A stretch of DNA of 64,000 nt from a virus (IMGVR_UViG_2931736537_000001:64001-128000); one strand, 5' to 3'; shown: positions 847 to 46,595, counted from the first letter of the stretch. The notes: generated from the letters alone by a model not told the origin. Numbers and translations are program-made.

Positions 847-1296
847 TCAGTTACCCACGAGGGAGGCGAGCGCGGCAGGGTCCGCCGCACGTGTGGAGAG
901 GTATCCGCCGTGCTCGTCGTAGCCGATGAACCCGCCCTGGAACAGACGCGTGTGCGAGGCGATGTACTCGTCGAGGTCCATGTCGTCACGGGACCTGACG
1001 CCGGCGTTCTCCTCGGCGGTGGTGATCATCGCCGCCAGGTAGCGTGCGTCGTGGCCGGTGATGCGTCCCTCGGCGATGGCGCACATGCTTGCGATGGCGT
1101 CGAGCGCCACGAGGTCGCCGGTCTCCTCCATGCGGATTCGCATCGTCGGAGGGTACGTTCGCCCTTCGATCACTTCTGCGCAGTCCCGGTGCACGAGGGG
1201 GTACAGGGGCACTGACATGGCCGGCGCGTCCCGCCAGCTGCGGTCCTTGGGCCTCTTGCCCTTCGCCGCTCGTCGAGCCTGACTCTTCCGTCCCAT
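847..1296 (-). CDS. Hypothetical protein
   Basis: 149-aa ORF with protein-like composition. Confidence 0.55.
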   Translation of the reverse strand: MGRKSQARRAAKGKRPKDRSWRDAPAMSVPLYPLVHRDCAEVIEGRTYPPTMRIRMEETGDLVALDAIASMCAIAEGRITGHDARYLAAMITTAEENAGVRSRDDMDLDEYIASHTRLFQGGFIGYDEHGGYLSTRAADPAALASLVGN

Positions 1297-9688: not shown

Positions 9689-10993
9689 CTAGCCGTTGTG
9701 GTGCAGCGCGGTCGCCGCGTCGGCGAGCGCTGCGGTGAGGAAGTCGATGTCCTCGTCCGTTGAGGTCAACGGTGGGGCGACGACCAGCCCTTCGGTGCGC
9801 GGCTGGCCGGCCCCGGTGAACGGGTAGAAGAAGACGTCGCGCTCTTCGGTGGCCTCCATCAGGGGCCAGAGCAGACCGGGCTCGACCTCGACGCCGTACA
9901 GGTGCCCGAGCCCGCGCACGGTCCTCACCGGCCCTCGGCCGGCCAGTTCGTGCAGGGCCCGTCCGAGTCGCTCGCCGCGGGCGGTGAAGGCGTTGTGGTC
10001 CATGGATTCCAGCTCGTCCAGGACGCCGAGGCAGGCTGCCGCCTGCAGCGGGTGGGTGGCCATGGTGCCCATCGCGGGCAGTGGGTCGGCGTTCTGGTGG
10101 CGGATGAGGGGTGCGATGTCGGGCGCGACGAGTACGGCTCCGATGCCGGTGTAGCCGGCTCCCAGCCCTTTGGACAGGATGCACAGGTCCGGTTCGGCGC
10201 CGTCCCAGTGGTGGCTGGCCAGGGGTGTGCCGGTGCGCCAGAGCCCGGTCAGCACCTCGTCGTGGATGACGAGGACCTCACGTTCCCGGCAGATCTCCGA
10301 CACGCGCCGCAGGTACCCGGCGGGCGGGACGTAGGCCCCGCCGGTGGTGCCGTTCACTGGTTCGAGCAGGACGGCGGCGACGTTCTCCGCTCCCCTGTTG
10401 TCGATCGCCTTGGCCACCTCGTCGGCGCACGAGGCGTCGCACTCGCGCTGTTCGTGGCTGTGCGTCGGCGGGTAGGGCGCGGCGAAGGCCGGTCCGAGGC
10501 CGAGGGCGTCCTCGGGGTGGGGTCGTCGGGCGTGGTTCCCGGCGAGCGCGAGGGTCAGGGCGCTGTTGCCGTGGTAGCTCAGGGTGGACGTCAGGATGTC
10601 CCCTCGGCTCTTCCCGCCTCGGCGCATTCGGGTGATGTTCCGGGCCAGGCCCACGGCGACCTCGACGCCCAGGGTGCCGCAGGTCGTCAGCGCGACGGAG
10701 TCTTCCGTGCGTCCCACGGCGCGGCAGAGGCGGTCCATCAGTTCCATCTGGATGTGGGGCTGGACGACGGCCGCGCCTCCGAAGGAGTAGCGGTGGAACT
10801 GCTGCTCGATGCGGGCGAGGACCTTCGGGCTGCTCTGCCCCACGTTCGCGCAGAGGAGGCCGCTCGATCCGTCGAGGATCCGCCGGCCATCGGCGCGGTG
10901 GAGCCAGGAGCCGCTGGTGGCCACGACGTCGAAGTCCGGCAGGGGCCTGGATGACGTCAGCAGCCTTGTGCGGCTGGGTAAGTACCGATCCAC
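9689..10993 (-). CDS. Class III PLP-dependent aminotransferase
   Basis: DGSSGLLCANVG, SYHG, EPVNG, DEVLTGLWRTG, SKGLG. Confidence 0.9.
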   Translation of the reverse strand: MDRYLPSRTRLLTSSRPLPDFDVVATSGSWLHRADGRRILDGSSGLLCANVGQSSPKVLARIEQQFHRYSFGGAAVVQPHIQMELMDRLCRAVGRTEDSVALTTCGTLGVEVAVGLARNITRMRRGGKSRGDILTSTLSYHGNSALTLALAGNHARRPHPEDALGLGPAFAAPYPPTHSHEQRECDASCADEVAKAIDNRGAENVAAVLLEPVNGTTGGAYVPPAGYLRRVSEICREREVLVIHDEVLTGLWRTGTPLASHHWDGAEPDLCILSKGLGAGYTGIGAVLVAPDIAPLIRHQNADPLPAMGTMATHPLQAAACLGVLDELESMDHNAFTARGERLGRALHELAGRGPVRTVRGLGHLYGVEVEPGLLWPLMEATEERDVFFYPFTGAGQPRTEGLVVAPPLTSTDEDIDFLTAALADAATALHHNG

Positions 10994-20438: not shown

Positions 20439-21368
20439 TTACCTCACGCCCTCGTTGAACTCGATGTCCGCGATCAGGGAGGTGGAGCCGTCGACGCTGA
20501 GGTCACCGGTCTCGATCTTCGACATGTACGTCTGCACGTACAGGGTCTGGGTGGTGCCGCGTATGGCTGCGGGGATGGACAGGCTGTCGGCGAGGACGAT
20601 CGTGTTGCGACGGGTGGAGGTTCCCTGGTCGTCGTCGATGGCGGTGTTCTGTCCCTGCACCGTCCCGAAGACGTTCTGCATGTTGGCGTATACGTTGCTC
20701 TTGGTCAGCCGCAGGCCCGCGAAGGTGGTTACGAGCTTGGCGCTGGTCGCCCATGACGGCACGGCAATGCTCCAGCGCGCGGAGGACGGCCAGTTGTGCC
20801 ACTTGTTGTCCTGGTACGTCAGCGTGCTGAGCGAGCCGGGGAAGGACGTGTACAGCCGACGCTCGCGGCGCGGGTTGGCGACCGCCCGCACGTCCTTGAT
20901 CATCGAGTCGGTGATGACCGCCGTGTTGGCGGGTATGTCGATGCGGGCTAGCGGGACGGCCGTCATGCCGGCGGGCACCGTCGTGGTGGTGGCCGGCACG
21001 TTGCTGACGACGTGGAAATATCCGATCTCGTCCTTCTCCGGATCGCGGGTGCCTTCGTACTCGGGGTCCTCCACGCGCAGGCACACCAGGTCGGAGCGGG
21101 CGGTCGCGCCCGTGGGGGCGACGGGCACGATGGCGTCGCCGACGTTGTACTGGGTGTACGAGCCCTGCCCCCAGGTGGCTCCGCGGATGACCGCCGAGCC
21201 GTCGCGGACGCGTACGCCGGCCCCGGGGGTGGCCAGCTGGTAGACCTTGAGGTCGTCGCCTTCGGTGACGCCTTGGGAGCCGCGCGCCAGGTCGCGCACC
21301 ATCATGCGGAAGGCGCGGGCGGCGTGGGTGCCGCCGTGGGTCATCAGCGGCGGGTTGATCAGCGTCAC
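20439..21368 (-). CDS. Minor tail protein
   Basis: DLKV...GVRVRDG...RSDLVCLRV...PLARI motifs typical of actinophage minor tail proteins. Confidence 0.7.
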   Translation of the reverse strand: MTLINPPLMTHGGTHAARAFRMMVRDLARGSQGVTEGDDLKVYQLATPGAGVRVRDGSAVIRGATWGQGSYTQYNVGDAIVPVAPTGATARSDLVCLRVEDPEYEGTRDPEKDEIGYFHVVSNVPATTTTVPAGMTAVPLARIDIPANTAVITDSMIKDVRAVANPRRERRLYTSFPGSLSTLTYQDNKWHNWPSSARWSIAVPSWATSAKLVTTFAGLRLTKSNVYANMQNVFGTVQGQNTAIDDDQGTSTRRNTIVLADSLSIPAAIRGTTQTLYVQTYMSKIETGDLSVDGSTSLIADIEFNEGVR

Positions 21369-30378: not shown

Positions 30379-30623
30379 CGGGTGTCGCCCTTCTGCTGGT
30401 TGGGCCAGTGCCAGGTGCCGCCGGTCAGCGGGACGGGCTCGGCGTGCGGCAGCGGGCCGCTGCAGAAGAAGCCCTCGGGGCTGAAGACGGTGAGGGTGGG
30501 CTGGTCGACGTCGTCGACGGCGGTGACGATCGCCGCCCGGCAGGTGCTGGGGTACTGGCCGTCGGCGCTGCCGCGGGCGACGTAGTGGACGATGCGGCCG
30601 ATGACCAAGGGCTGGCTGCTCAT
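30369..30623 (-). CDS. Conserved small phage protein
   Basis: IGRIVHYV...CRAAIVT...GTWHWP. Confidence 0.7.
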   Translation of the reverse strand: MSSQPLVIGRIVHYVARGSADGQYPSTCRAAIVTAVDDVDQPTLTVFSPEGFFCSGPLPHAEPVPLTGGTWHWPNQQKGDTRCA

Positions 30624-31471
30624 GAGTGCTGTCCCTCCTCGATGGCGGGGTCTTCGTTGAGGTCCGGGCGGGGGATGAAGCGGCGGAGGCAGCCGGGGTG
30701 CGCGATCGGGTGGGCGGCGGCCTCCTCGGCGGAGCGGAAGGTGTTGTGGGCCAGGTCGGGGTCGGTGTGGACGGTCCATCCGCACTCCGGGCCGTCGGTG
30801 ACGTGCACCCAGTGCGCTGCCAGGTCCGCCGTGGTCGCGGTCAGCGCCCCGGTGTTGGCGACGGTGACGGCCTGGGCGGTCAGGGCAGTGCGGGCCCAGG
30901 AGAAGGCCGGGTGCCGGGCGCCGTGCTCGTAGGTGACGGTGTCCAGCGGGTGGGCAGCGGCCAGGTCCTCGGTATCCGGTGAGGTAGTCGAACGGGCGGC
31001 GGAGGTGACGGCCCGGGCGAAGGCTTGGGCGCGGCGGACGGTGTCCGTGACCCGGCGCATGAGCGCGGAGTAGCAGGCGTCGGTCAGTACGCTCAGCACG
31101 TCCTGGTGGGTCGACGTCCAGTCAAAGGACGGCCGCCGGCGGCCGGGGGCGAGAACGGCGGTGCGCAGGGCGTCCTCGGCTCCCAGCCGGTAGGCCCAGG
31201 GCAGGTCGACGGCGGTCCACCGTTCGAAGAGGGCACCGATGTCGGTGCTGAAGCGGCGGGTCGCCGTGGTGAAGACTTTCAGGGCGTCGCGTACGGCCAG
31301 GGGCACGGAGCCGGGCCGGAGGCCTCGGCGGCGGGCGCCGGCCAGCGCGCGGAGTACCGTCTGCTGGGCTGTGGTCAGCCGGGTCCAGCCGCGCTCGAGC
31401 TGCTCCAGTGCCGCGCGGATCAGTTGCCGCAGCGCCTCGTTGCGGGTGGGCTCGCCCGGTGGGGTGGTCAT
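30620..31471 (-). CDS. Minor capsid / MuF-like head morphogenesis protein
   Basis: DGPECGW..H...PIAHPGCLRRF C-terminal motif. Confidence 0.7.
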   Translation of the reverse strand: MTTPPGEPTRNEALRQLIRAALEQLERGWTRLTTAQQTVLRALAGARRRGLRPGSVPLAVRDALKVFTTATRRFSTDIGALFERWTAVDLPWAYRLGAEDALRTAVLAPGRRRPSFDWTSTHQDVLSVLTDACYSALMRRVTDTVRRAQAFARAVTSAARSTTSPDTEDLAAAHPLDTVTYEHGARHPAFSWARTALTAQAVTVANTGALTATTADLAAHWVHVTDGPECGWTVHTDPDLAHNTFRSAEEAAAHPIAHPGCLRRFIPRPDLNEDPAIEEGQHS

Positions 31472-31800
31472 CGGCGGGGCCGCTCGCGCAGGCGCAGGAT
31501 GCCGCTGCTCTGTTCGGTGCCCTCGCCCGGTGTCTCCTCGCCGGGCACGGGCGTGGTCGGGTCCTCGAGTTCGGCGATGAGCCGGTCCAGGACGGCGACG
31601 TTGCCACTGGTGTCGACGGACACCACGCCGCTGAGGGTGACCTTCAGCGGCTGCGCGATGAGCGACGCGCGGCGTTCGCGCAGCACCTCGAGCGCCACGG
31701 CCCGCAGCGAGTGCAGTCGGGTGTAGCGCGTCTCGAGGTCGGTGGTGTCGGTGGCCGGGCCGAGGGTGGCCAGCAGCCATCGGCGGGATGCTTCATCCAC
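31468..31800 (-). CDS. Putative head-tail adaptor
   Basis: Position after capsid genes; helical, 110 aa. Confidence 0.55.
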   Translation of the reverse strand: MDEASRRWLLATLGPATDTTDLETRYTRLHSLRAVALEVLRERRASLIAQPLKVTLSGVVSVDTSGNVAVLDRLIAELEDPTTPVPGEETPGEGTEQSSGILRLRERPRR

Positions 31801-31886
31801 GGGACAGCCCCAGCTGGTGGGAAGGGGTGTCCGGTGCAGGGCGGGCGAGGACGGGTCCCGCCCTGCACCGGACGTGAGGGGCCGAC

Positions 31887-32153
31887 TTACTCGTCGGTCT
31901 TGGAGGCCGGGCGGCGGGCGCGCGGCTTCTTCTCCAGCTCCTGGTCGGCCGGCTTCTGCGCGCCCGGGTCGGCGCCCGGGACGGCGTCCTTCTCGGCGCT
32001 GTCGCCCAGGTCGGGGAGCTTGCCGTCCTCCCACGCGGACGCCGTGGTGATGAGGGCGGCCAGCCGCGCCTCGGGCTCGGTGCCGGCGTCGCAGGTGACC
32101 CACTGATGGGTCTCGGGGTCCTTGACGTAGACGGTGGCGATGAGTCGGGCCAT
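31887..32153 (-). CDS. Hypothetical phage protein
   Basis: ATG directly after the major capsid stop. Confidence 0.6.
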   Translation of the reverse strand: MARLIATVYVKDPETHQWVTCDAGTEPEARLAALITTASAWEDGKLPDLGDSAEKDAVPGADPGAQKPADQELEKKPRARRPASKTDE

Positions 32154-32155
32154 GG

Positions 32156-33226
32156 TCACCACACCCGCGCGGCGATGTGGATGTCCGGCACGTACATCAC
32201 CGGCATGGCCGCGGCGGCGACCTTGGTCCACACGGTGACGGGGTCGTCCGTGTAGCCGTGGGTCACGACGATGCCGGGGGCGTCCTCCCGCAGGATCGCG
32301 GGGTTGGTGCCGCGGGACAGCTTCAGCGACTCGGCGGTGATGCCGTACTGCGTCTCGCCCCACTGCCGCACGTTGGGCGGCACCATCAGCCACAGGTTCT
32401 CCGGCAGCGCCCGGGGGTTGCTGCCGTCGTCCAGCGGGATCTGCACGTCGTACTCGACGATCTCGGGCAGGCCGTAGCGCGCCCGCACGGAGTCGACCTC
32501 GTTGGGGGCGAGGACGGCGGTGGGGATCTGCGAGCCCAGGAGCGCCCCGTAGAAGGCTGCGCGGTAGGACTGGTTCCCGGCGAGCAGGGCCTTGGCCTTG
32601 GACGACGTGAAGATGCGCTTGGGGATCGGCGCCCGGGCGTCGCGCAGGACCTGGATCCAGCGCATCTCGTCGCCGAGGGCGTCTGCGGTCGGGTCGGTCC
32701 ACGGCACCGGTGCGACGGGCATGTGGGCGGCCGGCACCTGGGCGTCGTACTCGATGAACAGGTTGTTCTCACCGGCCAGCGTGAACTTGCCGTCGGACAG
32801 GAGGTCGCCGGCGGCCAGCTCCATCCGGGAGCGGATGGACAGCACGTGCGCGGCGACGTCGTCGTAGACGGACTGGACCAGGTCGTCGGTGTTCGCGCCG
32901 CGGTCGGCGTCGAGGAGCAGCTGCTCCATTTCGCCCACCAGGTACTTCTGTCCGAGGGGCGGCAGCTTTCCCTCGGTCTCCACCATCGTGATCTCGCGGG
33001 TCGCGACGGGCGTGGTCGCGTCCCAGGCGCGGAACTTGGCCGCCGGCACCCGGCGGTTCGTCTTCTTCACTCGCCACTTGACGGTGTTGAGCCGGGCCTC
33101 GGGCAGGACGCTGCGGGTCAGCTCGTAGTCGTCCGGGCTGGGGACGGCCCGCGCGAAGGCGTTGATGTCGGTCGGCGTCAGGTCGCGGAGCAGGAGCTCC
33201 AGCATGTCGTTCGTGTCGTTCGGCAT
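32156..33226 (-). CDS. Major capsid protein (Phage_cap_E-like)
   Basis: KLPPLGQK...RMELAAGDLL...GETQYG...DPVTVWTK..A.AMP; follows the decoration protein. Confidence 0.85.
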   Translation of the reverse strand: MPNDTNDMLELLLRDLTPTDINAFARAVPSPDDYELTRSVLPEARLNTVKWRVKKTNRRVPAAKFRAWDATTPVATREITMVETEGKLPPLGQKYLVGEMEQLLLDADRGANTDDLVQSVYDDVAAHVLSIRSRMELAAGDLLSDGKFTLAGENNLFIEYDAQVPAAHMPVAPVPWTDPTADALGDEMRWIQVLRDARAPIPKRIFTSSKAKALLAGNQSYRAAFYGALLGSQIPTAVLAPNEVDSVRARYGLPEIVEYDVQIPLDDGSNPRALPENLWLMVPPNVRQWGETQYGITAESLKLSRGTNPAILREDAPGIVVTHGYTDDPVTVWTKVAAAAMPVMYVPDIHIAARVW

Positions 33227-33240
33227 GACGAAGCTCCCTC

Positions 33241-33654
33241 TTAGGCGCGGGCGAAGGTGAGGCTGGCGGTGGACTTGGCCACGGTGGCCGGGTCGAAGGC
33301 CACCGGCAGCTTGGCCGGGGCGATGAGGCCGTGGACGCGCAGCGCACCGCCGACGCGGGTGGAGCCGACGCCGAACTGGGTCTCCGTGTCGAGCAGGCCG
33401 GCGAAGATCTCGTGTCCGTCGGTGGCCGCGGGGTCGTACGGCTCGTACAGCCCGCTGGTGGTGTTGAGGGCGAGCGGCAGGCCGGACTTGAAGTGCGCCT
33501 CGACCGTTTTGATGCCGCGCTCCCAGTGGGTGTTCTCCGTGAACTTGGCGACGTCGAGGGTGATGGTCTGGTTGGTCTCGGTGCCGTGGCCGGACAGCAG
33601 CCAGGGACGGCCAACCCTGAGCTGCTGGGTCGTGGTGATCGGCTGGATATCCAT
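33241..33654 (-). CDS. Head decoration protein
   Basis: SGLPLA...GLYEPYDPAATDG...AGLL...HG. Confidence 0.8.
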   Translation of the reverse strand: MDIQPITTTQQLRVGRPWLLSGHGTETNQTITLDVAKFTENTHWERGIKTVEAHFKSGLPLALNTTSGLYEPYDPAATDGHEIFAGLLDTETQFGVGSTRVGGALRVHGLIAPAKLPVAFDPATVAKSTASLTFARA

Positions 33655-33778
33655 GCCGGGGCTTCCTCCCGTTTCACGGGCGCTGCGGAAAGGCGGGGCA
33701 CCGGGCGGTGCCGTCCACGGGGAGGAAGGGGGTGGGCGTGGTCCCAGGGGTGGAGCAGGTGGTGCGCGCGGCGGCCGG

Positions 33779-34609
33779 TCAGGCCGCCTTGTTGTCCGGG
33801 GTGCCGAACATGCGGGCCGCCATGGCGCGGCCGGCGTCGCCGGGCTTTCCGACGGGGGTCTGGCGCTGCGGCGGGCCGCCGGCCGGGGAGCCGCCCGGTG
33901 CGGGCGGGGGCGTCAGCTTCGGACCGCCCTCGTCGACGCCGAACAGGCCCGGGCGCCGCTTCTTGAGGTCCTTGGCCGCCTTCTTGATCGTGGCCTCGTC
34001 CGCGTCGGGGGTGTCCCGGAGTTCCTTGTCCAGCAGGACGAGGGCGTCCTCGAGGTCGGCGTCGCTGGCGCCGAGACCCATGAGGGTGGCCGTGCGCTGT
34101 GCTTCCTGCAGCTTGGCTTCGGCAGCGGCCAGCTTCTGGTCGGCGGCCGTCTCCTTCGCCGTGACGGCCTGCTCGCGCTTGGCGAACTCCGCCTGACGCT
34201 TCTGTTCGTCGGACAGCTGGGCTTCCTTGGCCTTCTTGGCGTCGGCGAGGATCTGCTTGATCTGCTCGGCGTCGACGGCCTCCGGGTCGAGTCCGGCCTC
34301 GGCGGCGAGGTCACGCAGGGCGGACTGCCGGCCCTGGTCCTTCTCCCGGGTCATCATCAGGTTCAGGCGCTTCTGGGTGAAGGAGACGGTCTCCTCTTCG
34401 CTTCCCCCCGGGTTGCCGCCGGGCTGCCGGTCGATGACGTCCTTCGGCGTGGGGGCCGGCGGCGCCGCGGGCGGAGCGGCGGGCGGGGTCGGCGGGTTGG
34501 GCGGGTCGTCCTCGCCGGAGCCGCCTGCGATGACGCGGACCGGGCGGCCGTTGACGTAGCCGACGATCGCGCCGGGTACGGGACGCGGTCGGGGGGTGCT
34601 GCGGTGCAT
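33779..34609 (-). CDS. Capsid scaffolding protein
   Basis: GRPVRVIAGGS leader, FTQKRLN, coiled coil, P-rich tail. Confidence 0.75.
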   Translation of the reverse strand: MHRSTPRPRPVPGAIVGYVNGRPVRVIAGGSGEDDPPNPPTPPAAPPAAPPAPTPKDVIDRQPGGNPGGSEEETVSFTQKRLNLMMTREKDQGRQSALRDLAAEAGLDPEAVDAEQIKQILADAKKAKEAQLSDEQKRQAEFAKREQAVTAKETAADQKLAAAEAKLQEAQRTATLMGLGASDADLEDALVLLDKELRDTPDADEATIKKAAKDLKKRRPGLFGVDEGGPKLTPPPAPGGSPAGGPPQRQTPVGKPGDAGRAMAARMFGTPDNKAA

Positions 34610-34665: not shown

Positions 34666-36513
34666 TCACTGCTGCTGTCCTGCGTCGTTGGCGCCGGTCT
34701 CAGCGGCTGCTGGGGCGGGCGGTTCGGAACGTTGGGCGCTCGGTCCGGTCAGTACGGGCACGGGCGGGTCGTCGGGGTCGGCGGGCTCCAGCCCCAGGTA
34801 CTCCCGGACGGCGTCGGCGTCGCCGGTGGCGTCCGCGAGGGCGGCGGCCTGGTCGAAGGCGCGGGCCTGGATGCGTTCGATCTCGGCGGGGATGTCCTCG
34901 ATCGGCCAGCCGCCCTCGGCGAGCATGCGCAGCGCGGTCTCCAGGCTGATGAGCCGGGCGGCGAACGCGGTGGCGACCTCCTCGAGGACGCCCATGCGGT
35001 CGGTGGGCGTGTACGCGCCGAAGACGAGGGAGGCCGGGTGCACGGCGCGGCCGACCCAGTCGGGGTGCTGCCCGGCGATGAACAGCCGCTGCACGAACCG
35101 CAGGAGGAGCTGGTACTTGTGCCGGCGGGCCAGGCGCATGGCGGCGACGAGCTTGTCGAGCGGGCCGAGGCTGATCTTCAGGGCGTACCCCGAGGGCATC
35201 TGCGCTGGGTCGTGGGTGCCCAGGGCGACCGCCGGGAGGCGGAGGTTGACCGCAGCGCGGTCGCGCAGGGTGTCCACGGTGGCCAGGAGCTGGGCGAGTT
35301 GGGGTGCGGTGTTCACGACGTCCATGCGCCCGCCGTCAGCCAGCTTGAAGACGGTGCCCGGCTCGACCTGGAGGCTGGCGCGGCCGTCCTGCAGCCCGGA
35401 TACGGACAGGATCGGGATGCCGGTGGTCGCCGAGGCGCGGGCCGCGTCGGTGTCGGAGGCCGCCAGCTCGTCCAGGATCTGCAGGACCTTGGCGAGGGAC
35501 GCCGTGCCCCAGTGCTCCCCGGCCGCGGGCACCGTGTTCGGGAGGTGGATCACCGGCACGAAGTCGATCACGAGGTCGAGCCCGTTGAGGACCTCGCCGT
35601 CGCTGCGCTGGGCGTAGGTGGCCTTGTCCATCGGCAGGTTGTCGACGTCGCTGGTGCGCTCGAGGTCCTCCAGCAGCCAGGTGGCGTCGGTCAGGTAGCA
35701 GGTGACGCTGGACGGCTCGTCGTTCCAGGCGTACTGCCGCCAGATCGTCCCGGCCTCGTCGGCGGCGTCCCCCTGGACGAGCTGCGGTTCGTCCTCACTT
35801 CCGGCCCAGGTGCGCTGGGGCCGGCCGTACCGGTCGGCGCTCGAGGTGGTGGCCGGCCGAATCGGACCGAGCTCGTAGGTGATGCGGCGCAGCCGGTCCT
35901 TCAGCCCGCGCCGGGGGTCGGCCGGCAGTTCCCACGCGAAGTGCACGCGCACCGGAAACTCTCCGTCGTCGTCGCCCAGCACTGGGAAGTAGAAGCCGGG
36001 ATCCATCACACGGACGACCGGGCGCCGTTTGTCCGGCTCCCACGACAGCCGGTAGACGGCGTCGCCGAGGCCGACGGCCTTGCGCTCGGCCTGCAGCAGG
36101 CGCATGGGCAGTTGCTCGTCCTCTGCCCAGGTGAGGAGGTCGTCCTGGACGGCGCGGGCCTCTTCGGCGTCCGGGCTGTCGTCCTCGTCCTCGACGCCGG
36201 CGACGACGATGCGCTGCTCGTCACCGAGGACGTCGGAGGTGATCGCCTCAATGAAGCTGGCCGGGTCTCCGTATTCACGCCGTTCACGGGCCTCGGGTCC
36301 GTCGCGCACCTCGGCGAGTTCGCCGGCCTGGTTGCCGTCGTAGGCGGCGAGGGTGGTGTACGCGGCCAGGCGCCGGACGTCGTCGTCGGGGACCCAGGTG
36401 GCGTAGGCGGACGGGAAGGCCCGGCGGTTGGGGTTGTTCGTGCTCGGGTCGGCGAACACCGGCTTGAAGTTCAGCCAGCCCCAGGTGTCGATCAGGAATT
36501 GCCGCAGGCCCAC
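34666..36513 (-). CDS. Portal protein
   Basis: About 615 aa; GTG with GGAG RBS; LGDAVY..W, DPGFYFP, FVPVIHLPN, SGYALKI. Confidence 0.85.
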   Translation of the reverse strand: MGLRQFLIDTWGWLNFKPVFADPSTNNPNRRAFPSAYATWVPDDDVRRLAAYTTLAAYDGNQAGELAEVRDGPEARERREYGDPASFIEAITSDVLGDEQRIVVAGVEDEDDSPDAEEARAVQDDLLTWAEDEQLPMRLLQAERKAVGLGDAVYRLSWEPDKRRPVVRVMDPGFYFPVLGDDDGEFPVRVHFAWELPADPRRGLKDRLRRITYELGPIRPATTSSADRYGRPQRTWAGSEDEPQLVQGDAADEAGTIWRQYAWNDEPSSVTCYLTDATWLLEDLERTSDVDNLPMDKATYAQRSDGEVLNGLDLVIDFVPVIHLPNTVPAAGEHWGTASLAKVLQILDELAASDTDAARASATTGIPILSVSGLQDGRASLQVEPGTVFKLADGGRMDVVNTAPQLAQLLATVDTLRDRAAVNLRLPAVALGTHDPAQMPSGYALKISLGPLDKLVAAMRLARRHKYQLLLRFVQRLFIAGQHPDWVGRAVHPASLVFGAYTPTDRMGVLEEVATAFAARLISLETALRMLAEGGWPIEDIPAEIERIQARAFDQAAALADATGDADAVREYLGLEPADPDDPPVPVLTGPSAQRSEPPAPAAAETGANDAGQQQ

Positions 36514-36618
36514 GTCGTCCCTCCGGACAAGTCGGCCCCGCGCCGTGATCAAGGATATCGGCGCGGGCTGGCCGGTCCTGCGGGCGTGGCCCGGCCTGAT
36601 CTTTCTCGGGCAACCTCC

Positions 36619-36683
36619 TTCCATCCTTACAACGTACCGTTGTATGGTCGAACCCGAGCCAAAGGCAACGGAACGTTGTATAG
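36619..36683 (+). promoter_or_regulatory. Tandem operator/promoter (full site 36627-36644, partial site 36666-36680)
   Basis: TTCCAT-cc-TTACAACG-tac-CGTTG-TATGGT and caacg-gaa-CGTTG-TATAGT; divergent from the portal gene. Confidence 0.8.
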
Positions 36684-36724
36684 TCAGCGCCGGGAAAGGC
36701 TCGCCCGGCGCGGGAGGAGAAACC

Positions 36725-36946
36725 GTGGAAGGCGCAACGCGGCCGCAGGGCCCCGCACACCCCGACGTGACGGTCCAGCTGTCCGGAGAAGACAGCAACG
36801 CGTACAACATCGTCGGACAGGTCTGCAGGGCGCTGCGACGGGCCGGACACCCCGAGGCGGCCTCGGAGTTCGCGGCGACGGCATTCCGGTCGACGTCGCA
36901 CGACGAGCTGCTGCAACTGGCCATGTGCACGGTCGACGTGCACTGA
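36725..36946 (+). CDS. Small conserved phage/plasmid protein
   Basis: GGAGGAG RBS; VQLSGEDSNAYNIVGQV..ALRRAG motif. Confidence 0.75.
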   Translation: MEGATRPQGPAHPDVTVQLSGEDSNAYNIVGQVCRALRRAGHPEAASEFAATAFRSTSHDELLQLAMCTVDVH

Positions 36947-36957
36947 CACCCGGATCA

Positions 36958-36994
36958 GCGCGGTCCGCCCCGAGGCAAGCGGGGCGGACCGCGC
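36958..36994. repeat. Hairpin with CG-AGGCAAG-CG loop (1)
   Basis: Perfect 15-bp stem. Confidence 0.85.
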
Positions 36995-37024
36995 GTCCAT
37001 CGTCGCAGATCGGAGACAGAGGAC

Positions 37025-37261
37025 ATGAGCGGCAAGCAGGAACAGCAGAAGGCGCCGGAAGTCTGGGGCTACGCGAAGGTCGCCGAGGTGTCCGGCGTGA
37101 AGGTGCCCACCCTGCGCCGGTACAAGAAGGAGGGCCACATGCCTGCCCCGGACATCGCCGTGGGGAACTCGCCCGGCTGGTTCCCGGCGACCATCGAGAA
37201 GTGGCTCAAGGACCGCCCCGGCAGGGGCTTCCGGTCGGACCTGAAGGACCAGGACTCCTGA
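37025..37261 (+). CDS. AlpA/MerR-like HTH DNA-binding protein (candidate regulon repressor)
   Basis: YAKVAEVSGVKVPTLRRY...MPAPD...PGWFPATIEKW...RPGRG. Confidence 0.8.
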   Translation: MSGKQEQQKAPEVWGYAKVAEVSGVKVPTLRRYKKEGHMPAPDIAVGNSPGWFPATIEKWLKDRPGRGFRSDLKDQDS

Positions 37262-37363
37262 CGCCGCCCAGCCCGCCGGCGCCGCCTCGACGCGCCCCCG
37301 CTCCCCCGCCGGAGCCGGGGCGCGCGGCGTTTCCGGAGGGGTTGAGGAAGATCAGAAAAGCCC

Positions 37364-37393
37364 TTCTCACCTTACAACGCAACGTTGTAAGGT
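37364..37393 (+). promoter_or_regulatory. Promoter with operator
   Basis: TTCTCA-cc-TTACAACG-caa-CGTTG-TAAGGT. Confidence 0.85.
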
Positions 37394-37433
37394 TATGGGA
37401 GAGGCCGGGCCCGCCGGCCAGGAGAGGAGTCCG

Positions 37434-37928
37434 ATGTTCACCGTCAGCCTGGACCTCAACGACCACGGCCTGCCCAAGAGCGACCCGCTGAAGGTCCACG
37501 CCGTCGGCGACTGGGTGCACGGCACGACCAGCATCCGGTACGCCTTCCACGACCCGGCGATCCACTTCCCCGACTCGGACTGCCCGATCACCGGCGTCCT
37601 GCTGATCGACAAGTACATCGACCCGGTCTACCGGGACGACCCGGCCGGGTACGACTTCGACGACGAGCCGGCCGTGTCGGTCAGCCTCGGCGACCCCCGG
37701 GCCGCCGACGTGCACGACCAGATGCTGGAGGTCGGGGACTGGGGCCTCACCGGCCATGTGGTCTGCAGCGACCTGTACATGAACCCGGGACCGCACCCGG
37801 ACCACGCCGACCGGCACCCCTTCGACTTCCGCGTCGGCCTGGACGCCCCCACCCACCACCTGGCTGCGAGCCTCCTGCGGGCCGCCGCCTCCGACTACGT
37901 GCAGCGCTGGAAGGCGGTAAGCATCTGA
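37434..37928 (+). CDS. Hypothetical acidic protein
   Basis: AGGAG RBS; followed by a hairpin. Confidence 0.75.
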   Translation: MFTVSLDLNDHGLPKSDPLKVHAVGDWVHGTTSIRYAFHDPAIHFPDSDCPITGVLLIDKYIDPVYRDDPAGYDFDDEPAVSVSLGDPRAADVHDQMLEVGDWGLTGHVVCSDLYMNPGPHPDHADRHPFDFRVGLDAPTHHLAASLLRAAASDYVQRWKAVSI

Positions 37929-37985
37929 CCTGCGCCCCGGCAGCCCTCCGGGGCGCAGCCGCGTGAAGAAGATCGGCGTCACGAC

Positions 37986-38015
37986 TTCCAACCTTACAAC
38001 GCTTCGTTGTATTGT
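37986..38015 (+). promoter_or_regulatory. Promoter with operator
   Basis: TTCCAA-cc-TTACAACG-ctt-CGTTG-TATTGT. Confidence 0.85.
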
Positions 38016-38055
38016 CGGGGTGCAAGGAACGGCCCGGCACCACGAAGGAGACGAG

Positions 38056-38310
38056 ATGGACCTCGACAACACCACCGCCGACCAGGTCTTCCAGGCGGCC
38101 AGTACGGCCACCTTCCGCAGGACCAACCTCGGGATGACTGCCGACGTACCGGTCGACGGCTACCGCTACCGGGTCATCGTCGAGGACCGCTACCTGGCCC
38201 ACACCGACTGCCGGGAGGGCTACGGCGGCACCGAGTGGACCTACGCCAACGCCACCCAGGAGCAGGACCGGGCGCTGCGCGCGGCGATCGCCGCCCAGAC
38301 CGCCAAGTAG
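38056..38310 (+). CDS. Small hypothetical protein (paralog of 39210-39461)
   Basis: AAGGAG RBS; aligns with the 39210 ORF. Confidence 0.8.
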   Translation: MDLDNTTADQVFQAASTATFRRTNLGMTADVPVDGYRYRVIVEDRYLAHTDCREGYGGTEWTYANATQEQDRALRAAIAAQTAK

Positions 38311-38316
38311 CCGGCC

Positions 38317-38361
38317 GCGGCGGGGGCTTGCCGCGAGGCAAGCGCGGCAAGCCCCCGCCGC
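38317..38361. repeat. Hairpin with CG-AGGCAAG-CG loop (2)
   Basis: Perfect 19-bp stem. Confidence 0.85.
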
Positions 38362-38391
38362 CCGGCCCGACCGTCCAGCGAGGAGGACACC

Positions 38392-39015
38392 GTGACCGTC
38401 ACCTTCACCGCCGCGCACCGCCCGCCCGTCGGCTACGCGGTCAGCTGCGGCTGCGACGAGGCCACCGCGCGCGCTCCGCGCTACGGCGCCTGGCGCGATG
38501 CACAGGACGCCGCCGACCGGGCCAACGCCGCGGCGGACGCCCGACGCCCCCTGCCCGGCTGCGCCATGCCCGAGACCTGCCCCGAGTACCCGCTGTACGC
38601 CGAGGAGGTCGACCCCGACGGGCGGGTGCCGGACGTGACGGTCTCGAGTATCAACGCCGTCGGCGTGCTGGAGGCCCTGGGGGTCGCGCTCGCCGCCGAG
38701 CCGGACGCCGCCGAGCCGGACGCCGTCGAGAGCGAGGCGCTCGAGGGCGGCATGCCCCTGGAGGCGCCGGAGGACGGCGTGGTCGTGCCGATCGCGGTGG
38801 TCGACGCCTGCGGCGAGCTGCCCGTGGAGGACTTCCGCGCGCGGGTGCTCACGGCCCTGGGCCTGGCGCCCGAGGACCCGGGGGTCCCGGGCATCCAGCT
38901 CGGACGCACGTACGTGGGCGGGCGCCCGGCCGGGTACCTGCAGCGCCGCCTGCAGGACCTGTACGCGCTGGCGGACTGGTGCGCCGCACACGGCCGCGAC
39001 GTGGCCTGGTACTGA
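38392..39015 (+). CDS. Hypothetical protein (Cys-containing, acidic)
   Basis: GGAGG RBS; GRPAGYLQRRL...L...C...V.W C-terminus. Confidence 0.75.
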   Translation: MTVTFTAAHRPPVGYAVSCGCDEATARAPRYGAWRDAQDAADRANAAADARRPLPGCAMPETCPEYPLYAEEVDPDGRVPDVTVSSINAVGVLEALGVALAAEPDAAEPDAVESEALEGGMPLEAPEDGVVVPIAVVDACGELPVEDFRARVLTALGLAPEDPGVPGIQLGRTYVGGRPAGYLQRRLQDLYALADWCAAHGRDVAWY

Positions 39016-39138
39016 CGGCCCGCCCCGTTCAGCCAGGGGCGGGCCGACCGGCCCGCACAGGCCCACGTCGGCAGGGGGCCGGCACTCCCGCAACATCTCT
39101 GACCTGCGGTTTTCTTCTGTAAATCCAGGCGACACGGG

Positions 39139-39168
39139 TTCCAACTTTACAACGCAGCGTTGTAACGT
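39139..39168 (+). promoter_or_regulatory. Promoter with operator
   Basis: TTCCAA-ct-TTACAACG-cag-CGTTG-TAACGT. Confidence 0.85.
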
Positions 39169-39209
39169 CGTGATCGCCAGGAACGCACCGCCGCACGAAG
39201 GGATACGAG

Positions 39210-39461
39210 ATGCACCTCGACCGCGTCACCGCCGACAAGGTCTTCGAGGCCGCCTGCCAGGCCCGGTTCCACCCCACCGGCCACCTCGGGATGACCGCCC
39301 AGGTGTTCATCGACGAGTACACCTACCGGATCTGCATCACCGACGAGCGCCCCGCCCGCACCGACCTTCGGGCGGGCTGGGGCGACGCCGAGGAGGCCCT
39401 CGCCGAGGCCACCCCCGAGCAGGACCGGGCGCTGCGCGAGGCGATCGCCAGCCCTGCGTAG
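39210..39461 (+). CDS. Small hypothetical protein (paralog of 38056-38310)
   Basis: Shared TAD.VF.AA...LGMTA...EQDRALR.AIA. Confidence 0.8.
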   Translation: MHLDRVTADKVFEAACQARFHPTGHLGMTAQVFIDEYTYRICITDERPARTDLRAGWGDAEEALAEATPEQDRALREAIASPA

Positions 39462-39472
39462 CCACACCCCCA

Positions 39473-39505
39473 GGGGCCCGCCTCGAGGCAAGCGAGGCGG
39501 GCCCC
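39473..39505. repeat. Hairpin with CG-AGGCAAG-CG loop (3)
   Basis: Perfect 13-bp stem. Confidence 0.85.
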
Positions 39506-39564
39506 GCCGCCTGTGACGCAGGGCTCCGATCAGCGGGCTTCTTCAAGAGATCGGCCGACCCGAC

Positions 39565-39594
39565 TTCCCACCTTACAACGCTCCGTTGTATAGT
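39565..39594 (+). promoter_or_regulatory. Promoter with operator
   Basis: TTCCCA-cc-TTACAACG-ctc-CGTTG-TATAGT. Confidence 0.85.
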
Positions 39595-39644
39595 TGTGGT
39601 GTTGGCAGGGCGGGGAACCGCCCACGGACGAACGAGGAGCGACC

Positions 39645-39983
39645 ATGGACAACACCAGGCGCCACGCCCGGATCTGCATCCACCTCGCACAGCGGGAGGT
39701 CACCGAGGCCCACGGTCCGGTGACCGACCTGGATGCCACCGAGCGCCGCTGGCGGCGCGAGGACCTGGCCTCCGCCTTCCGCGACTACCGCGAGATCCGC
39801 GTACAGGGAGTCGGGGCGACCTGGCGCGAGGCCCTGCAGGACGCAGCCTCCCGAGGCCGCTTCAACCTCACCCCCTACGACGGCAACCTGGACGACGCGC
39901 GCGACGCCCTGGCGCGCGGCGCCATATGGGACTTCACCGCCACCCCGAACGGGACGGCGCTCGTAGGCCCCCTGGCCTTCTAG
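39645..39983 (+). CDS. Hypothetical protein
   Basis: GAGGAG RBS. Confidence 0.75.
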   Translation: MDNTRRHARICIHLAQREVTEAHGPVTDLDATERRWRREDLASAFRDYREIRVQGVGATWREALQDAASRGRFNLTPYDGNLDDARDALARGAIWDFTATPNGTALVGPLAF

Positions 39984-40146
39984 CCCGCCCCCCTGGCCGC
40001 CCGGCCCCCACCGGGCGGCCTTCCCCGTTGCGGCCAGCAAGCGGGGCGCCCGGCGCCTTCACGGGCGCACGTGACCCCGACCGGCCTCGATCCCGAGGTC
40101 GACGCTACGGGGCCGGCATGTCGGCCCAGGAAGATCGCGCACGCGC

Positions 40147-40176
40147 TTCCATCGTTACAACGCTCCGTTGTATAGT
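40147..40176 (+). promoter_or_regulatory. Promoter with operator
   Basis: TTCCAT-cg-TTACAACG-ctc-CGTTG-TATAGT. Confidence 0.85.
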
Positions 40177-40235
40177 TGATCTCGAAGGGGACGGGGAAGG
40201 CCCCCGGACCTTGATGCACACAGAGGGAGCGCAGC

Positions 40236-40448
40236 ATGCACGAGATGACGGTCGCCGAACTGATCGAGCAGCTCGAGGAGATGGACCCGGAGGCGACGGT
40301 GCGCCTGGCCATTCAGCCGACCTACCCCTTCGAGCACAGCCTCGCCAAGGCGGTCCAGGCCGAGGACGGCACCTGCTACCTCGCCGAGGGCGAGCAGCTG
40401 GGCTACCTCAGCGACCGGGCCAGCGAGGACATCGGCTGGGGCCGCTAG
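40236..40448 (+). CDS. Small acidic phage-type protein
   Basis: MTVAELIEQLE..DPEATVRLA.QP.YPFE motif; GGAG RBS. Confidence 0.8.
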   Translation: MHEMTVAELIEQLEEMDPEATVRLAIQPTYPFEHSLAKAVQAEDGTCYLAEGEQLGYLSDRASEDIGWGR

Positions 40449-40459
40449 CTCGGACACGC

Positions 40460-40492
40460 AGGGCCCGCCCCGAGGCAAGCGGGGCGGGCCCT
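40460..40492. repeat. Hairpin with CG-AGGCAAG-CG loop (4)
   Basis: Perfect 13-bp stem. Confidence 0.85.
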
Positions 40493-40549
40493 CGCTTTCG
40501 TTGCCCCGCGGGCCCCCTTCGGGCCGGCCCGGAAAGATCCCGAACCGAC

Positions 40550-40579
40550 TTCCATCGTTACAACGCTACGTTGTATAGT
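40550..40579 (+). promoter_or_regulatory. Promoter with operator
   Basis: TTCCAT-cg-TTACAACG-cta-CGTTG-TATAGT. Confidence 0.85.
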
Positions 40580-40625
40580 TGGGGTGCGAGCGGGGGACGG
40601 CCCCGGAAGACGGAAGGGAAGCGCG

Positions 40626-40850
40626 ATGCTGTACATGCTCAAGGAACTCGACTCCAAGGGCCGCATCTTCCAGGACGACGACACGACCGAGTACTTCAGC
40701 GCGGCCGACTACGGCAGCGACGACGCTGCGAAGGCAGCCGCGATGGACGCGTACAACTGGCGGGTCCGCCAGACCGACGAGGCTTGGGGTGACGGGGTCG
40801 GCAAGACCCGGTGGACCCTCCTGGAGTGGGGGCCCGGGCCCAAGCCCTAG
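40626..40850 (+). CDS. Small hypothetical protein
   Basis: Purine-rich RBS; follows the promoter. Confidence 0.7.
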   Translation: MLYMLKELDSKGRIFQDDDTTEYFSAADYGSDDAAKAAAMDAYNWRVRQTDEAWGDGVGKTRWTLLEWGPGPKP

Positions 40851-40860
40851 CACTCACGCT

Positions 40861-40891
40861 CGCAGCCCCGGCCCGCCTGGCCGGGGCTGCG
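40861..40891. terminator. Hairpin between the convergent small gene and terL
   Basis: cgcagccccggcc-cgcct-ggccggggctgcg. Confidence 0.7.
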
Positions 40892-40895
40892 CCGC

Positions 40896-42455
40896 TCACC
40901 GGCGCCCGTTGAGGCGTCCGTCGCGGTAGCTGCCCGTCCCGCTGTCCACGGCCGCCGGGTTGGCCAGCTCGGTCAACGCGTGCACGCAGGCGTCCATCCG
41001 GTCCGGCGAGTCGAGACCCGGCATCCAGGTGACCATCTGTACCTCGAGCCCCGGCCACTCCCCCACGTGCCTGACCCGACCCTGCTCGTACAGCTGGGCG
41101 ATCGGCTCGGCCCTCAACCTTTTGCCCTGCTTGGCGGTCACGGGCACGATCCGCGGGCGCAGCACGCCAGCGACCTCGGGACCCGCAGCGCGGACCATCT
41201 CCTCCCAGCCCTGGACGAGCACCTGCCTCGTCATGTCGCCGCCGAAGTTGGACTCGACGACCATGGCGTCGGCCTGGACCTCGAGGGCGAGTTCGCACGC
41301 CGCTCGTCCCCAGTCGGCGGCGCCCATCTTCCCTGAGCGGTCGGCCAGGACGTACAGGTTCCCGGCCGCGTCGCGTCCGGCGGCCACGATGCCGACCTCG
41401 TCGCTGTCCTCGCCGCCACCGGCCGGGTCCACGGCGACCACGACCCGGGTGAGCTGGACGCCGCGCAGCTGCTCGGCGCTGACGCGGTGCCGGCGGATCC
41501 ACTCCCACTTCCAGATGCCACCCTCGAGCGGCCTGGGCTGCTGCTGGTACAGCGCCCACCAGCCACGCTCCCCGACCTCGTCGCGGAAGTCCTGCAGGTG
41601 CTCGAGGCCGAACCGCTCGGGCCACAGCGGCTCGCCGAGGGCGCGGCCGAGGGCGTCGTCGGCGCTGTCGGCGATCGCCGGCAGGTTGATGACGGTCCAG
41701 CGGGCGCTGTCCCGGGCGGCGTCCTGCGTCAGGATGCGGCCAGCCAGGTCGTTCTCACTCCAGCGGGTCTGGATGACGACGATGGACCCGTTCGGCTCCA
41801 TACGCGTGTTGAGGACCTGCTGCCACCAGTCCCACAAGTCGCCCAGCACGGTCGGGGAGGCCGCGGCCTTCGCGTCCTTCAGCGGGTCGTCGACGATGGC
41901 CAGGTGCGCGCCCATACCGGTCAGCGAGCCGCCGACGCCGGCGGTGACGAGGCCACCGGGCCCGCCGGTCAGGTCGAAGCGCCCGGCCGCCTTGGAGCCG
42001 TAGCGCAGGGATATGCCGAGCTGGTCCTCGTACTCGTTGATGGAGTCGCGCAGCCAGCGGCCGTGTCCCTCGGCGAGGACCGCGCTGTAGGAGGCGATCA
42101 TCAGCCGGTGGGTAGGGTTGCGCCGCAGGTACCACAGGGGCGCCCAGCGCGCCGCGCGCTGCGACTTGCCGTGCCGGGGCGGCATGTTCAGCAGCAGCCG
42201 GACTCGTTCACCGCGGGCGATGCGGATGAACGCCTGGTCGATGAGGTTGAGGTGCCGGGCCTGCAGCTCCCGGCCGTTGGTCAGCAGCGCGGCCAGGGAC
42301 CCCGGGGAGCGGTCCATGGCCATCTCACGCTCGACCTGGGCCAGGCGCATGCGCATGTCGGGTGAGGCGCTGCGGGCGATGGCCAGGCGTTGCTGGCGGG
42401 GCAGCGTGCGGTAGCGCTTGAGGAGACGTTCCTCCTGGTCCGGCGCCTGCATCAT
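40896..42455 (-). CDS. terL: Terminase large subunit
   Basis: Walker A MPPRHGKS, IVDDPLKD, QTRW, YQQQP, nuclease VAVDPA and SPDRMDA. Confidence 0.93.
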   Translation of the reverse strand: MMQAPDQEERLLKRYRTLPRQQRLAIARSASPDMRMRLAQVEREMAMDRSPGSLAALLTNGRELQARHLNLIDQAFIRIARGERVRLLLNMPPRHGKSQRAARWAPLWYLRRNPTHRLMIASYSAVLAEGHGRWLRDSINEYEDQLGISLRYGSKAAGRFDLTGGPGGLVTAGVGGSLTGMGAHLAIVDDPLKDAKAAASPTVLGDLWDWWQQVLNTRMEPNGSIVVIQTRWSENDLAGRILTQDAARDSARWTVINLPAIADSADDALGRALGEPLWPERFGLEHLQDFRDEVGERGWWALYQQQPRPLEGGIWKWEWIRRHRVSAEQLRGVQLTRVVVAVDPAGGGEDSDEVGIVAAGRDAAGNLYVLADRSGKMGAADWGRAACELALEVQADAMVVESNFGGDMTRQVLVQGWEEMVRAAGPEVAGVLRPRIVPVTAKQGKRLRAEPIAQLYEQGRVRHVGEWPGLEVQMVTWMPGLDSPDRMDACVHALTELANPAAVDSGTGSYRDGRLNGRR

Positions 42456-46565: not shown

Positions 46566-46595
46566 TTCCAACCTTACAACGCTCCGTTGTATAGT
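46566..46595 (+). promoter_or_regulatory. Promoter with operator
   Basis: TTCCAA-cc-TTACAACG-ctc-CGTTG-TATAGT; divergent from the packaging operon. Confidence 0.85.

Follow-up and report, generated by a model that had tools for sequence, protein, structure and literature searches.

Hairpins with a common AGGCAAG loop behind the small genes of a putative Streptomyces phage-plasmid

The stretch of DNA analysed here (the window) is 64,000 nucleotides (nt) long and corresponds to positions 64001-128000 of the virus record IMGVR_UViG_2931736537_000001, which has a length of 141,694 bp. It holds an array of nine small plus-strand genes, four of which are followed by GC-rich hairpins that share the heptaloop AGGCAAG. 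Reading from sequence comparisons, we consider, with about even confidence, that these are RNA hairpins lacking a U-tract which terminate or subdivide transcripts, and that their loop is a selected feature serving recognition or folding. The record is syntenic end to end, at about 75-89% identity, with a 151,949-bp linear Streptomyces plasmid whose annotation includes capsid, terminase, ParB and methyltransferase genes, and it appears to be a Streptomyces phage-plasmid-like element itself.

The hairpins and their shared loop

All four hairpins lie on the plus strand and have a perfect stem capped by AGGCAAG. H1 (36958..36994), with a stem of 15 bp, begins 11 nt past the stop codon of gene A and ends 30 nt before the start of gene B, and H2 (38317..38361), with the longest stem of 19 bp, is separated by 6 nt from the stop codon of gene D and by 30 nt from the start of gene E. 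H3 (39473..39505) and H4 (40460..40492) have 13-bp stems and follow the stops of gene D' and gene G, respectively, each after 11 nt. An operator-promoter comes next behind both of them, preceded by a T-rich stretch in the case of H4. The preliminary description of this DNA had already reported these stem lengths, a distance of 6-11 nt from the stop codons and an identical 11-nt apex, all of which were confirmed by reading the sequence and by a hairpin scan. The stem of H2 is unrelated to those of H1, H3 and H4, and the tract common to the four hairpins, CGAGGCAAGCG, consists of the heptaloop and the two closing pairs, which are identical in all of them.

The 11-mer CGAGGCAAGCG occurs exactly four times in the window, always on the plus strand, and the whole record likewise holds four forward and no reverse occurrences, with 0 and 0 for the reversed-pattern control. 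Once a single mismatch is allowed, the count becomes unremarkable (6 against 3.33 expected, a number reached in 14 of 100 shuffles). On the other hand, the window contains seven perfect hairpins with a stem of at least 12 bp, compared with a mean of 0.18 and a maximum of 1 in 50 dinucleotide shuffles, and the AGGCAAG loop caps four of the seven. What lies far beyond chance is thus the hairpin context of the 11-mer and not its one-mismatch count. The computed RNA folding energies are -36.2, -46.8, -31.2 and -31.6 kcal/mol for H1 to H4, corresponding to z-scores of -6.6, -7.4, -5.9 and -4.8, and none of 200 shuffles equalled them. A covariance model built from 17 hairpins scores the four at 53.1, 47.1, 51.9 and 49.5 bits, in the same order.

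A canonical intrinsic terminator combines a GC-rich hairpin directly behind a gene, which is present in H1-H4, with a U-rich tract of about 7-9 nt, which is missing behind H1-H3. The earlier statement had been that no long U-tracts follow the hairpins. H4 has a weak one, its downstream sequence CGCTTTCGTT containing 5 T in 10 nt, and is the only one of the four flagged as terminator-like by a simple scan. It had also been stated that two hairpins precede genes without an operator-promoter of their own, and a scan for operator sites agrees: none is located between H1 and the start of the gene at 37025, nor between H2 and the start of the gene at 38392.

A fifth AGGCAAG hairpin, H5, is located outside the window, at record positions 20752-20784, which is 43 kb before the first base of the window and about 80 kb from H1-H4. 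Its motif is on the plus strand and its 13-bp stem, gctccggccccgg, is unrelated in sequence to the other stems. H5 sits between two minus-strand genes encoding 141 and 153 amino acids (aa), so that the complement of the loop would be present in their mRNA. All five AGGCAAG loops are therefore on the plus strand of the record, the minus-strand operon around H5 notwithstanding, which speaks for a strand-specific DNA signal. Each of the five motif copies of the record is placed exactly in the loop of a perfect hairpin, and only four of the nine hairpins of the array carry the motif.

A comparison with Rfam gave nothing above the gathering score in positions 36000-41200, the best match being Scr3920 at 36877-36997, which scored 24.2 bits (E 0.15) where 88 would be needed. 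Contigs of four DNA sequencing runs break at the hairpins, which is probably an assembly effect of inverted repeats; no loop differences were present among the matches listed, and these data are uninformative on function.

Loop variation among relatives and in other phages

Relatives of the element were collected by searches with small proteins and with the large terminase gene, which lies on the minus strand at 40896..42455, convergent with the array. The collection comprises the plasmid G2, the 51-kb provirus G1, a 5.9-kb fragment (L032) and five Streptomyces genome contigs (L034-L038), the last with a terminase identity of 86-99%. Array genes were called in each genome and the sequence after each stop codon was folded; outside annotated records the genes were called by a heuristic for open reading frames (ORFs) based on third-position GC, and not by a gene finder.

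At the H1 position the loop is AGGCAAG in the window, L034 and L032, AGGCAAC in L036, AGGTAAG in G1 and AGGAGAG in G2 and L035, the last two having lost gene A by a deletion that left its final bases before H1; in L038 a different hairpin with the loop GCGCG is found. The H4 position presents a similar series, with AGGCAAG in the window, L034 and L038, AGGTAAG in G1, AGGAGAG in G2 and L035, and the tetraloops CCAG in L036 and GGAA in L037. The window's H2 is capped by the common 11-mer, whereas the top of H2 differs in the four relatives G2, L035, L036 and L038 (ctg/cac), where the loop is GGGCAAG over one C-C mismatch, and G1 has a shorter hairpin with the loop CCAG. In L034, which is 99% related, a long poly-C tract (7306-7380 in array orientation) takes the place of the top of H2, representing either a real change or a problem of assembling the inverted repeat. 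H3 is present only in the window and L034. At the position of hE, the non-motif hairpin after gene E (39016..39046, plus strand, loop GTTCAGCCA), five relatives have an H1-like stem with the motif inverted, reading CTTGCCC in four of them and CTCGCCC in L036; the hairpins of the window and L034 are unrelated to it. H5 is kept in the genome that holds L034, and its orthologue in G2 has the core GGTGAG. Given these variants, and the tetraloops found at the same positions, the word invariant, used for the loop in the preliminary description, is too strong.

Compensatory changes of the stems were observed in H3, where C-G in one of the two sequences corresponds to T-A in the other (window and L034), and in H1 among G0, G1 and G2. 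In the alignment of 17 hairpins, both partners vary in 10 of the 12 stem pairs and pairing is seen in 98.5% of the cells, a value that is partly circular because the hairpins were chosen for having at most one mismatch. Based on the positions, the compensatory changes and the folding energies, a nucleic-acid hairpin appears to be under selection at transcript ends or junctions.

In regard to the loop, the orthologues present the variants AGGCAAG, AGGTAAG, AGGAGAG, GGGCAAG, GGGCGAG and AGGCAAC. Positions 2, 3 and 6 are constant, positions 1 and 5 hold A or G, and position 4 is C, T or A, with G also found in another phage family. Position 7 is G, except for the C in H1 of L036 and in locus L049, both of which read AGGCAAC. 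This variation fits a GNRA rule at positions 3-6, or a GGNRA pentaloop with a looped-out base, with moderate support from the position pattern, as the independent loop substitutions number only about 8-12. The non-motif hairpin hC, located after gene C (37930..37958, plus strand, loop CAGCCCT), served as a control. Its stem, ctgcgccccggc, is kept in seven genomes, namely in the window and in the orthologues in L006, L007, L034-L036 and L038, and its C-rich loop differs in all seven, both in sequence and in length (4-7 nt).

Furthermore, the central bases of the H1 and H4 loops match within each lineage, being CA in both hairpins in G0 and L034, TA in both in G1, and AG in both in G2 and L035. 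As H1 and H4 of G1, and likewise those of G2, disagree at the third stem pair counted from the loop, they share no more than 11 nt around it, and a parallel change across such a tract implies that very short pieces were copied or that selection favoured one loop in both hairpins. Within one genome the same loop is also present on unrelated stems, as in H2 and H5 compared with H1, H3 and H4. A promoterless gene follows H1 and H2 in the window, H1, H2 and H4 in G2, and H1 and H4 in G1. From these comparisons we infer that the loop is a selected feature rather than the passive loop of a terminator. The association of the motif with promoterless genes is suggestive in itself and was not retained as a separate result, as orthologous positions are non-independent and some relatives have non-motif hairpins between cistrons.

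Occurrence outside the family was inspected in host genomes, in further Streptomyces genomes and in sequence collections. In five host genomes of 7.8-9.9 Mb each, for which 150 first-look candidates per genome were scored, all covariance-model hits of at least 41 bits were located on element contigs, the next best reaching 29 bits. From these scored candidates, a host-wide terminator type was rejected for the five hosts. A match at E <= 0.001 was obtained in 11 out of 151 Streptomyces genomes, namely in two carriers of the family and in nine further genomes with one hit each, of 36-40 bits. L041, L042 and L043, which are among these nine, belong to one prophage family, in which the hairpin has the sense orientation within an early operon. 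The loops seen there in the first scan were AGGTAAG and AGGAAAG, and in L043 the hairpin is placed between two cistrons. Of the others, L045 has a loop AGGTGAG between convergent genes and L049 the variant AGGCAAC.

Pattern scans that allowed any base at the two central positions added two further members of this prophage family, with the loops AGGCTAG (L079) and AGGGAAG, so that the family comprises L041, L042/L055, L043/L056, L079 and L081; the motif hairpins of L055 and L056 are at 9991-10027 and 10036-10066. An unrelated 53-kb phage contig, L078, has an AGGCAAG hairpin that is separated by 13 nt from the preceding stop codon and by 26 nt from the following start. In general, forward intercistronic motif hairpins of other families are followed by the next start after about 25-35 nt, with the exception of L055, where the distance to the called start is 85 nt. 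Counting independent loci, the motif is sense to transcription at seven of nine, which is suggestive and not significant. As for the surroundings of these hairpins, a LuxR-type helix-turn-helix gene is located one or two genes past the hairpin in L056, L079 and L081, and recombination genes are also present in L055 and L056.

In a second sample, of 151 Streptomycetaceae genomes, weak hits, one or two per genome, appeared in 15 non-family genomes and were generic GC hairpins only. The exact heptaloop was present in none of the 18 non-family hits of this sample, the nearest loops being AGGCGAT and AGGTGAT. A pattern scan of viral contigs returned three true hairpins and three short matches within ORFs, and another stem variant of the pattern returned matches within ORFs only. 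Of 42 stretches recovered by a metagenome pattern scan, merely two had a stem of at least 10 bp. BLAST searches with one hairpin against phage and plasmid collections gave chance-level matches and the known relative only, and no close sequenced phage was found for the two other motif-bearing families.

Possible roles of the loop and competing explanations

In the explanation that we propose, H1-H4 and H5 would act as RNA hairpins that stand behind or between cistrons in small transcription units under repressor control. Stable, GC-rich and U-less hairpins of this kind would stop or attenuate transcription and protect the 3' end of the upstream mRNA. A subclass of them would be capped by the heptaloop A/G-G-G-N-R-A-G with a G-C closing pair, taking up a GNRA-like fold, either as GGNRA with a looped-out base or as G[GNRA]G. 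A phage-associated factor, through protein or RNA contact, would then read the loop, thereby tuning read-through, processing or stability before promoterless genes. The action as RNA, the termination or attenuation and the loop-reading partner are all proposed; the partner is suggested by the limits on heptaloop variation, by the parallel changes and by how often the hairpins precede promoterless genes. The core of the earlier proposal, a putative recognition site for antitermination, processing or stabilisation, is supported by the loop constraint, the parallel changes, the hC control, the absence from hosts and the recurrence in other phages.

The closest working analogy is the boxB hairpin of lambdoid nut sites and its N peptide, as an analogy and not as membership, and a boxB-like role in antitermination is possible. 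According to PMC12550061, phage N peptides recognise pentaloops that fold like GNRA and have one base looped out, as is the C in GACAA, the pentaloop of P22 boxB; the core GGCAA seen here differs from GACAA only at the free N position. The variation pattern G-G-N-R-A would fit such a fold here, with AGGCTAG in L079 as the one exception. In both cases copies within one phage are identical and those of related phages differ, and the location is promoter-proximal or intergenic. However, the stems here are GC stems of 11-19 bp, three times longer than in boxB, two extra purines flank the core, and the hairpins look as if they were the terminators and not sites placed ahead of them. A boxA-like linear element common to the flanks of H1-H4 was not seen by eye, no formal motif search having been made. 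No N-like protein was identified; a composition scan lists proteins with a basic N-terminus, for example a 149-aa protein (window 847-1296, minus strand) beginning with MGRKSQARRAAKGKRPKDR, which on composition alone is a candidate for an arginine-rich motif. Taking the analogy further, temperate Streptomyces phages and phage-plasmids could employ a terminator hairpin whose AGGNRAG loop is read by a phage factor and gates a promoterless gene, with CA, TA and AG specificities co-evolving in the manner of N and boxB; we regard this extended version as unlikely.

Other known hairpins resemble those described here in part. They match the I-shaped terminators that WebGeSTer describes for actinobacteria and actinophages, being likewise stable GC-rich hairpins after a stop codon, without poly-U, in an early or regulatory region; early-region terminators of phage phiC31, reportedly treated by Ingham et al. 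(1995), are counted with this class. No conserved loop is known in that class as far as this source was checked, whereas the heptaloop here is constrained and often placed inside an operon. Intercistronic stability stem-loops, such as the repetitive extragenic palindromic (REP) sequences of E. coli, are also strong hairpins between cistrons of one transcript, with some 10 nt separating them from the stop codon on one side and some 30 nt from the following start on the other. REP-type families are host-wide repeats with conserved stems, whereas conservation in the present hairpins concerns the loop, the stems being variable, and copies are lacking in the five hosts. In line with this, the record does not present the REP/RAYT or IS200/IS605 arrangement, as the Y1 HUH domain PF01797 has no match in it and the stems differ.

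Several observations weigh against a selected and recognised loop. The motif is dispensable at each position, being replaced by CCAG (L036) or GGAA (L037) in H4, by CCAG (G1) in H2 and by GCGCG (L038) in H1, and the array of L037 has no motif hairpin at all. In the G2 lineage, H1 and H4 read AGGAGAG, yet H2 and the inverted hE copy stay GGGCAAG, so the loops of one genome do not all track one specificity. Likewise, the motif is opposite to transcription at two loci (hE in five relatives and H5 in the record), position 5 is a pyrimidine in one member of the second prophage family (AGGCTAG, L079), and a tblastn search of the record's ORFs against fragments revealed no protein common to the three phage families, the fragments being too short for this to count as absence. 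Mycobacterial RNA polymerase has been reported to require a U-tract at intrinsic terminators (PMC3993855), and termination at the present U-less hairpins is therefore itself a supposition.

A serious rival explanation, rather unlikely in our estimate, sees in the hairpins plain U-less terminators or stabilisers whose functionless loop is shared by descent and short-tract copying and has undergone few, mostly transitional, mutations. The common stem pattern gg(t/c)ccgcc(c/t)cg of H1, H3, H4 and hE speaks for such a history, as do the third-pair alleles C-G and T-A, found at differing positions across genomes and suggesting exchange between hairpins. The relatives in which the motif is lost and the hairpin kept (CCAG, GGAA, GCGCG) point the same way, other regulon cassettes end in ordinary loops (e.g. 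GAGA at 2680-2703), and with so few independent substitutions the position pattern is statistically weak. Passive descent would hardly explain, on the other hand, why H2 and H5 share the loop despite their unrelated stems, or why the identity of H1 and H4 in G1 and G2 is confined to 11 nt, with differing pairs on both sides, and yet includes the same derived central bases. The loop of hC, for its part, illustrates what becomes of an unconstrained loop, differing in all seven genomes, and the loop class is also found on other stems in two further phage families. The motif could alternatively be a DNA site, the 11-bp core being bound as double-stranded DNA by a regulator of the element, as a roadblock or in a stoperator-like way, with the hairpin being incidental. 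The sites are indeed intergenic and oriented, identical within a genome and different between related genomes, which is likewise the case for the immunity-specific sites of mycobacteriophages. Such binding is nevertheless very improbable, as all five copies of the record are placed exactly in the loops of perfect hairpins (of 11-19 bp), selection on double-stranded binding leaves the compensatory changes of the arms unexplained, and a repeated operator is already present in the array.

The loop could also be read in extruded single-stranded DNA or in a cruciform, as a strand-specific signal for priming, nicking or attC-like recombination of cassettes, and related ideas (a single-stranded DNA signal, attC-like sites, a likeness to telomere palindromes) had been put forward in the preliminary description. 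Consistent with this, the five AGGCAAG loops are all on the plus strand, including that of H5 among minus-strand genes, and the inverted hE copy of five relatives keeps the motif on the other strand with a purine-to-purine change only. GNRA-type folds form in DNA too (PMC12550061). Cassette order and content vary among relatives, the gene G cassette being second in G1 and L038 and next to last in the window, and in G0, G1 and G2 the homology to the right of H4 stops right after the hairpin. The likeness to integron attC sites lies in hairpins at the 3' ends of small cassettes with variable order; here, in contrast, there is no integrase, the stems are perfect, the cassettes have their own promoters, and the loop is conserved instead of core sites in the stem. 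Integron-type tyrosine recombinase PF00589 has no match in the record, with the control positive in 14 of 14 genomes, and serine recombinases and Y1 HUH transposases were equally absent from the record in searches with positive controls. Extrahelical bases are missing from the perfect stems, seven of the nine array genes have their own operator-promoter, seven of the nine independent loci are sense to transcription, and the opposite strand of hE in the same array leaves no single replication-strand rule. In addition, the sites are internal, at 20.7 kb and 101-104.5 kb of the 141.7-kb record, which is not the location of telomere palindromes. The DNA-level ideas are not supported, and we consider them quite improbable.

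Two other possibilities were rejected. A kissing interaction between the loops of H1-H4 and the complementary loop of H5 on the minus strand would call for co-variation, and the H5 orthologue in G2 does not co-vary with the G2 loops. A function of the loop as the Shine-Dalgarno sequence of the next gene is excluded by the presence of that gene's own Shine-Dalgarno sequence about 8-10 nt before the start, the loop being 40-50 nt upstream.

Very little has been established on the timing of early genes in Streptomyces phages and phage-plasmids, and it is a matter of dispute whether hairpins lacking a U-tract bring about termination in actinobacteria. The array represents a natural test set on 4 kb, as it combines motif and non-motif hairpins, intercistronic and unit-end positions, and loop variants in relatives. 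No description of the loop motif or of control specific to a hairpin loop was found in the literature on Streptomyces phages. Should a factor recognise the loop, this would be the first system of read-through or processing specific to a hairpin loop described in actinophages and a useful orthogonal part for Streptomyces engineering. If the loop is not read, the hairpins remain strong and well-defined insulators. The hairpins are possibly new as terminator or intercistronic hairpins, known in kind, with a conserved GNRA-like cap, and they may, as we suggest with little confidence, mark a new antitermination-like system.

The gene array and its operator-promoters

The nine genes of the array have the convergent large-terminase gene on one side and a long structural gene of the minus strand on the other. 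A GC-rich hairpin is present 1-14 nt behind each of them, perfect in every case but that of gene B. The encoded proteins are mostly ORFans, with the exception of those of genes A and B. Gene A (36725..36946, 73 aa) belongs to phrog_1933, a PHROG family of unknown function, and gene B (37025..37261, 78 aa), without its own promoter, encodes a helix-turn-helix protein of the MerR/excisionase type (phrog_597). Gene C (37434..37928, 164 aa), gene D (38056..38310, 84 aa) and gene E (38392..39015, 207 aa), the last also without its own promoter, have no family. Gene D' (39210..39461, 83 aa) is a paralogue of D, gene F (39645..39983, 112 aa) and gene H (40626..40850, 74 aa) have no family, and gene G (40236..40448, 70 aa) has weak PHROG matches of unknown function. 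All of them are on the plus strand, and some relatives carry extra array genes of 65-71 aa and 137 aa. The remaining non-motif hairpins, also on the plus strand, are hF (39995..40020, loop CCCCCA), after gene F, and hH (40861..40891, loop CGCCT), after gene H at the convergent junction with the terminase gene.

The operator-promoters consist of an inverted repeat, TTACAACG-N3-CGTTGTA, which overlaps TATAGT and has a conserved stretch of the TTCCA type ahead of it. Ten such sites are present in the window, compared with 0.25 expected from shuffles. The first one of the array is at 36627..36644, with a weaker second copy at 36663-36680, and is followed by those of gene C (37372..37389), the D-E unit (37994..38011), gene D' (39147..39164), gene F (39573..39590), gene G (40155..40172) and gene H (40558..40575), all on the plus strand. 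Two further sites of the window, at 2182-2199 and 46574-46591, are outside the array. The sites define a regulon of small genes spread across at least 44 kb, for which the MerR-type gene B is one candidate repressor. A regulon cassette elsewhere in the window, consisting of the genes at 2242-2487 and 2525-2668, has a plain GAGA tetraloop on its final hairpin (10 bp, 2680-2703).

Some additional structures were observed in the array and in the rest of the record. Gene E contains, at window position 38691, a 15-base in-frame tandem duplication relative to close relatives, as deduced from the absence of this stretch from the contigs of the four DNA runs. Long poly-C and poly-G runs that could pair with each other are present at the ends of the record, outside the window (24-126 and 141568-141616), and could be true termini of a linear replicon or assembly artefacts. 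Finally, five copies of the palindrome ggtgattgc-N3-gcaatcacc were found within 3.8 kb at record positions 30564-34342, also outside the window, and resemble the iterons or operators of another system, perhaps one of replication or partition.

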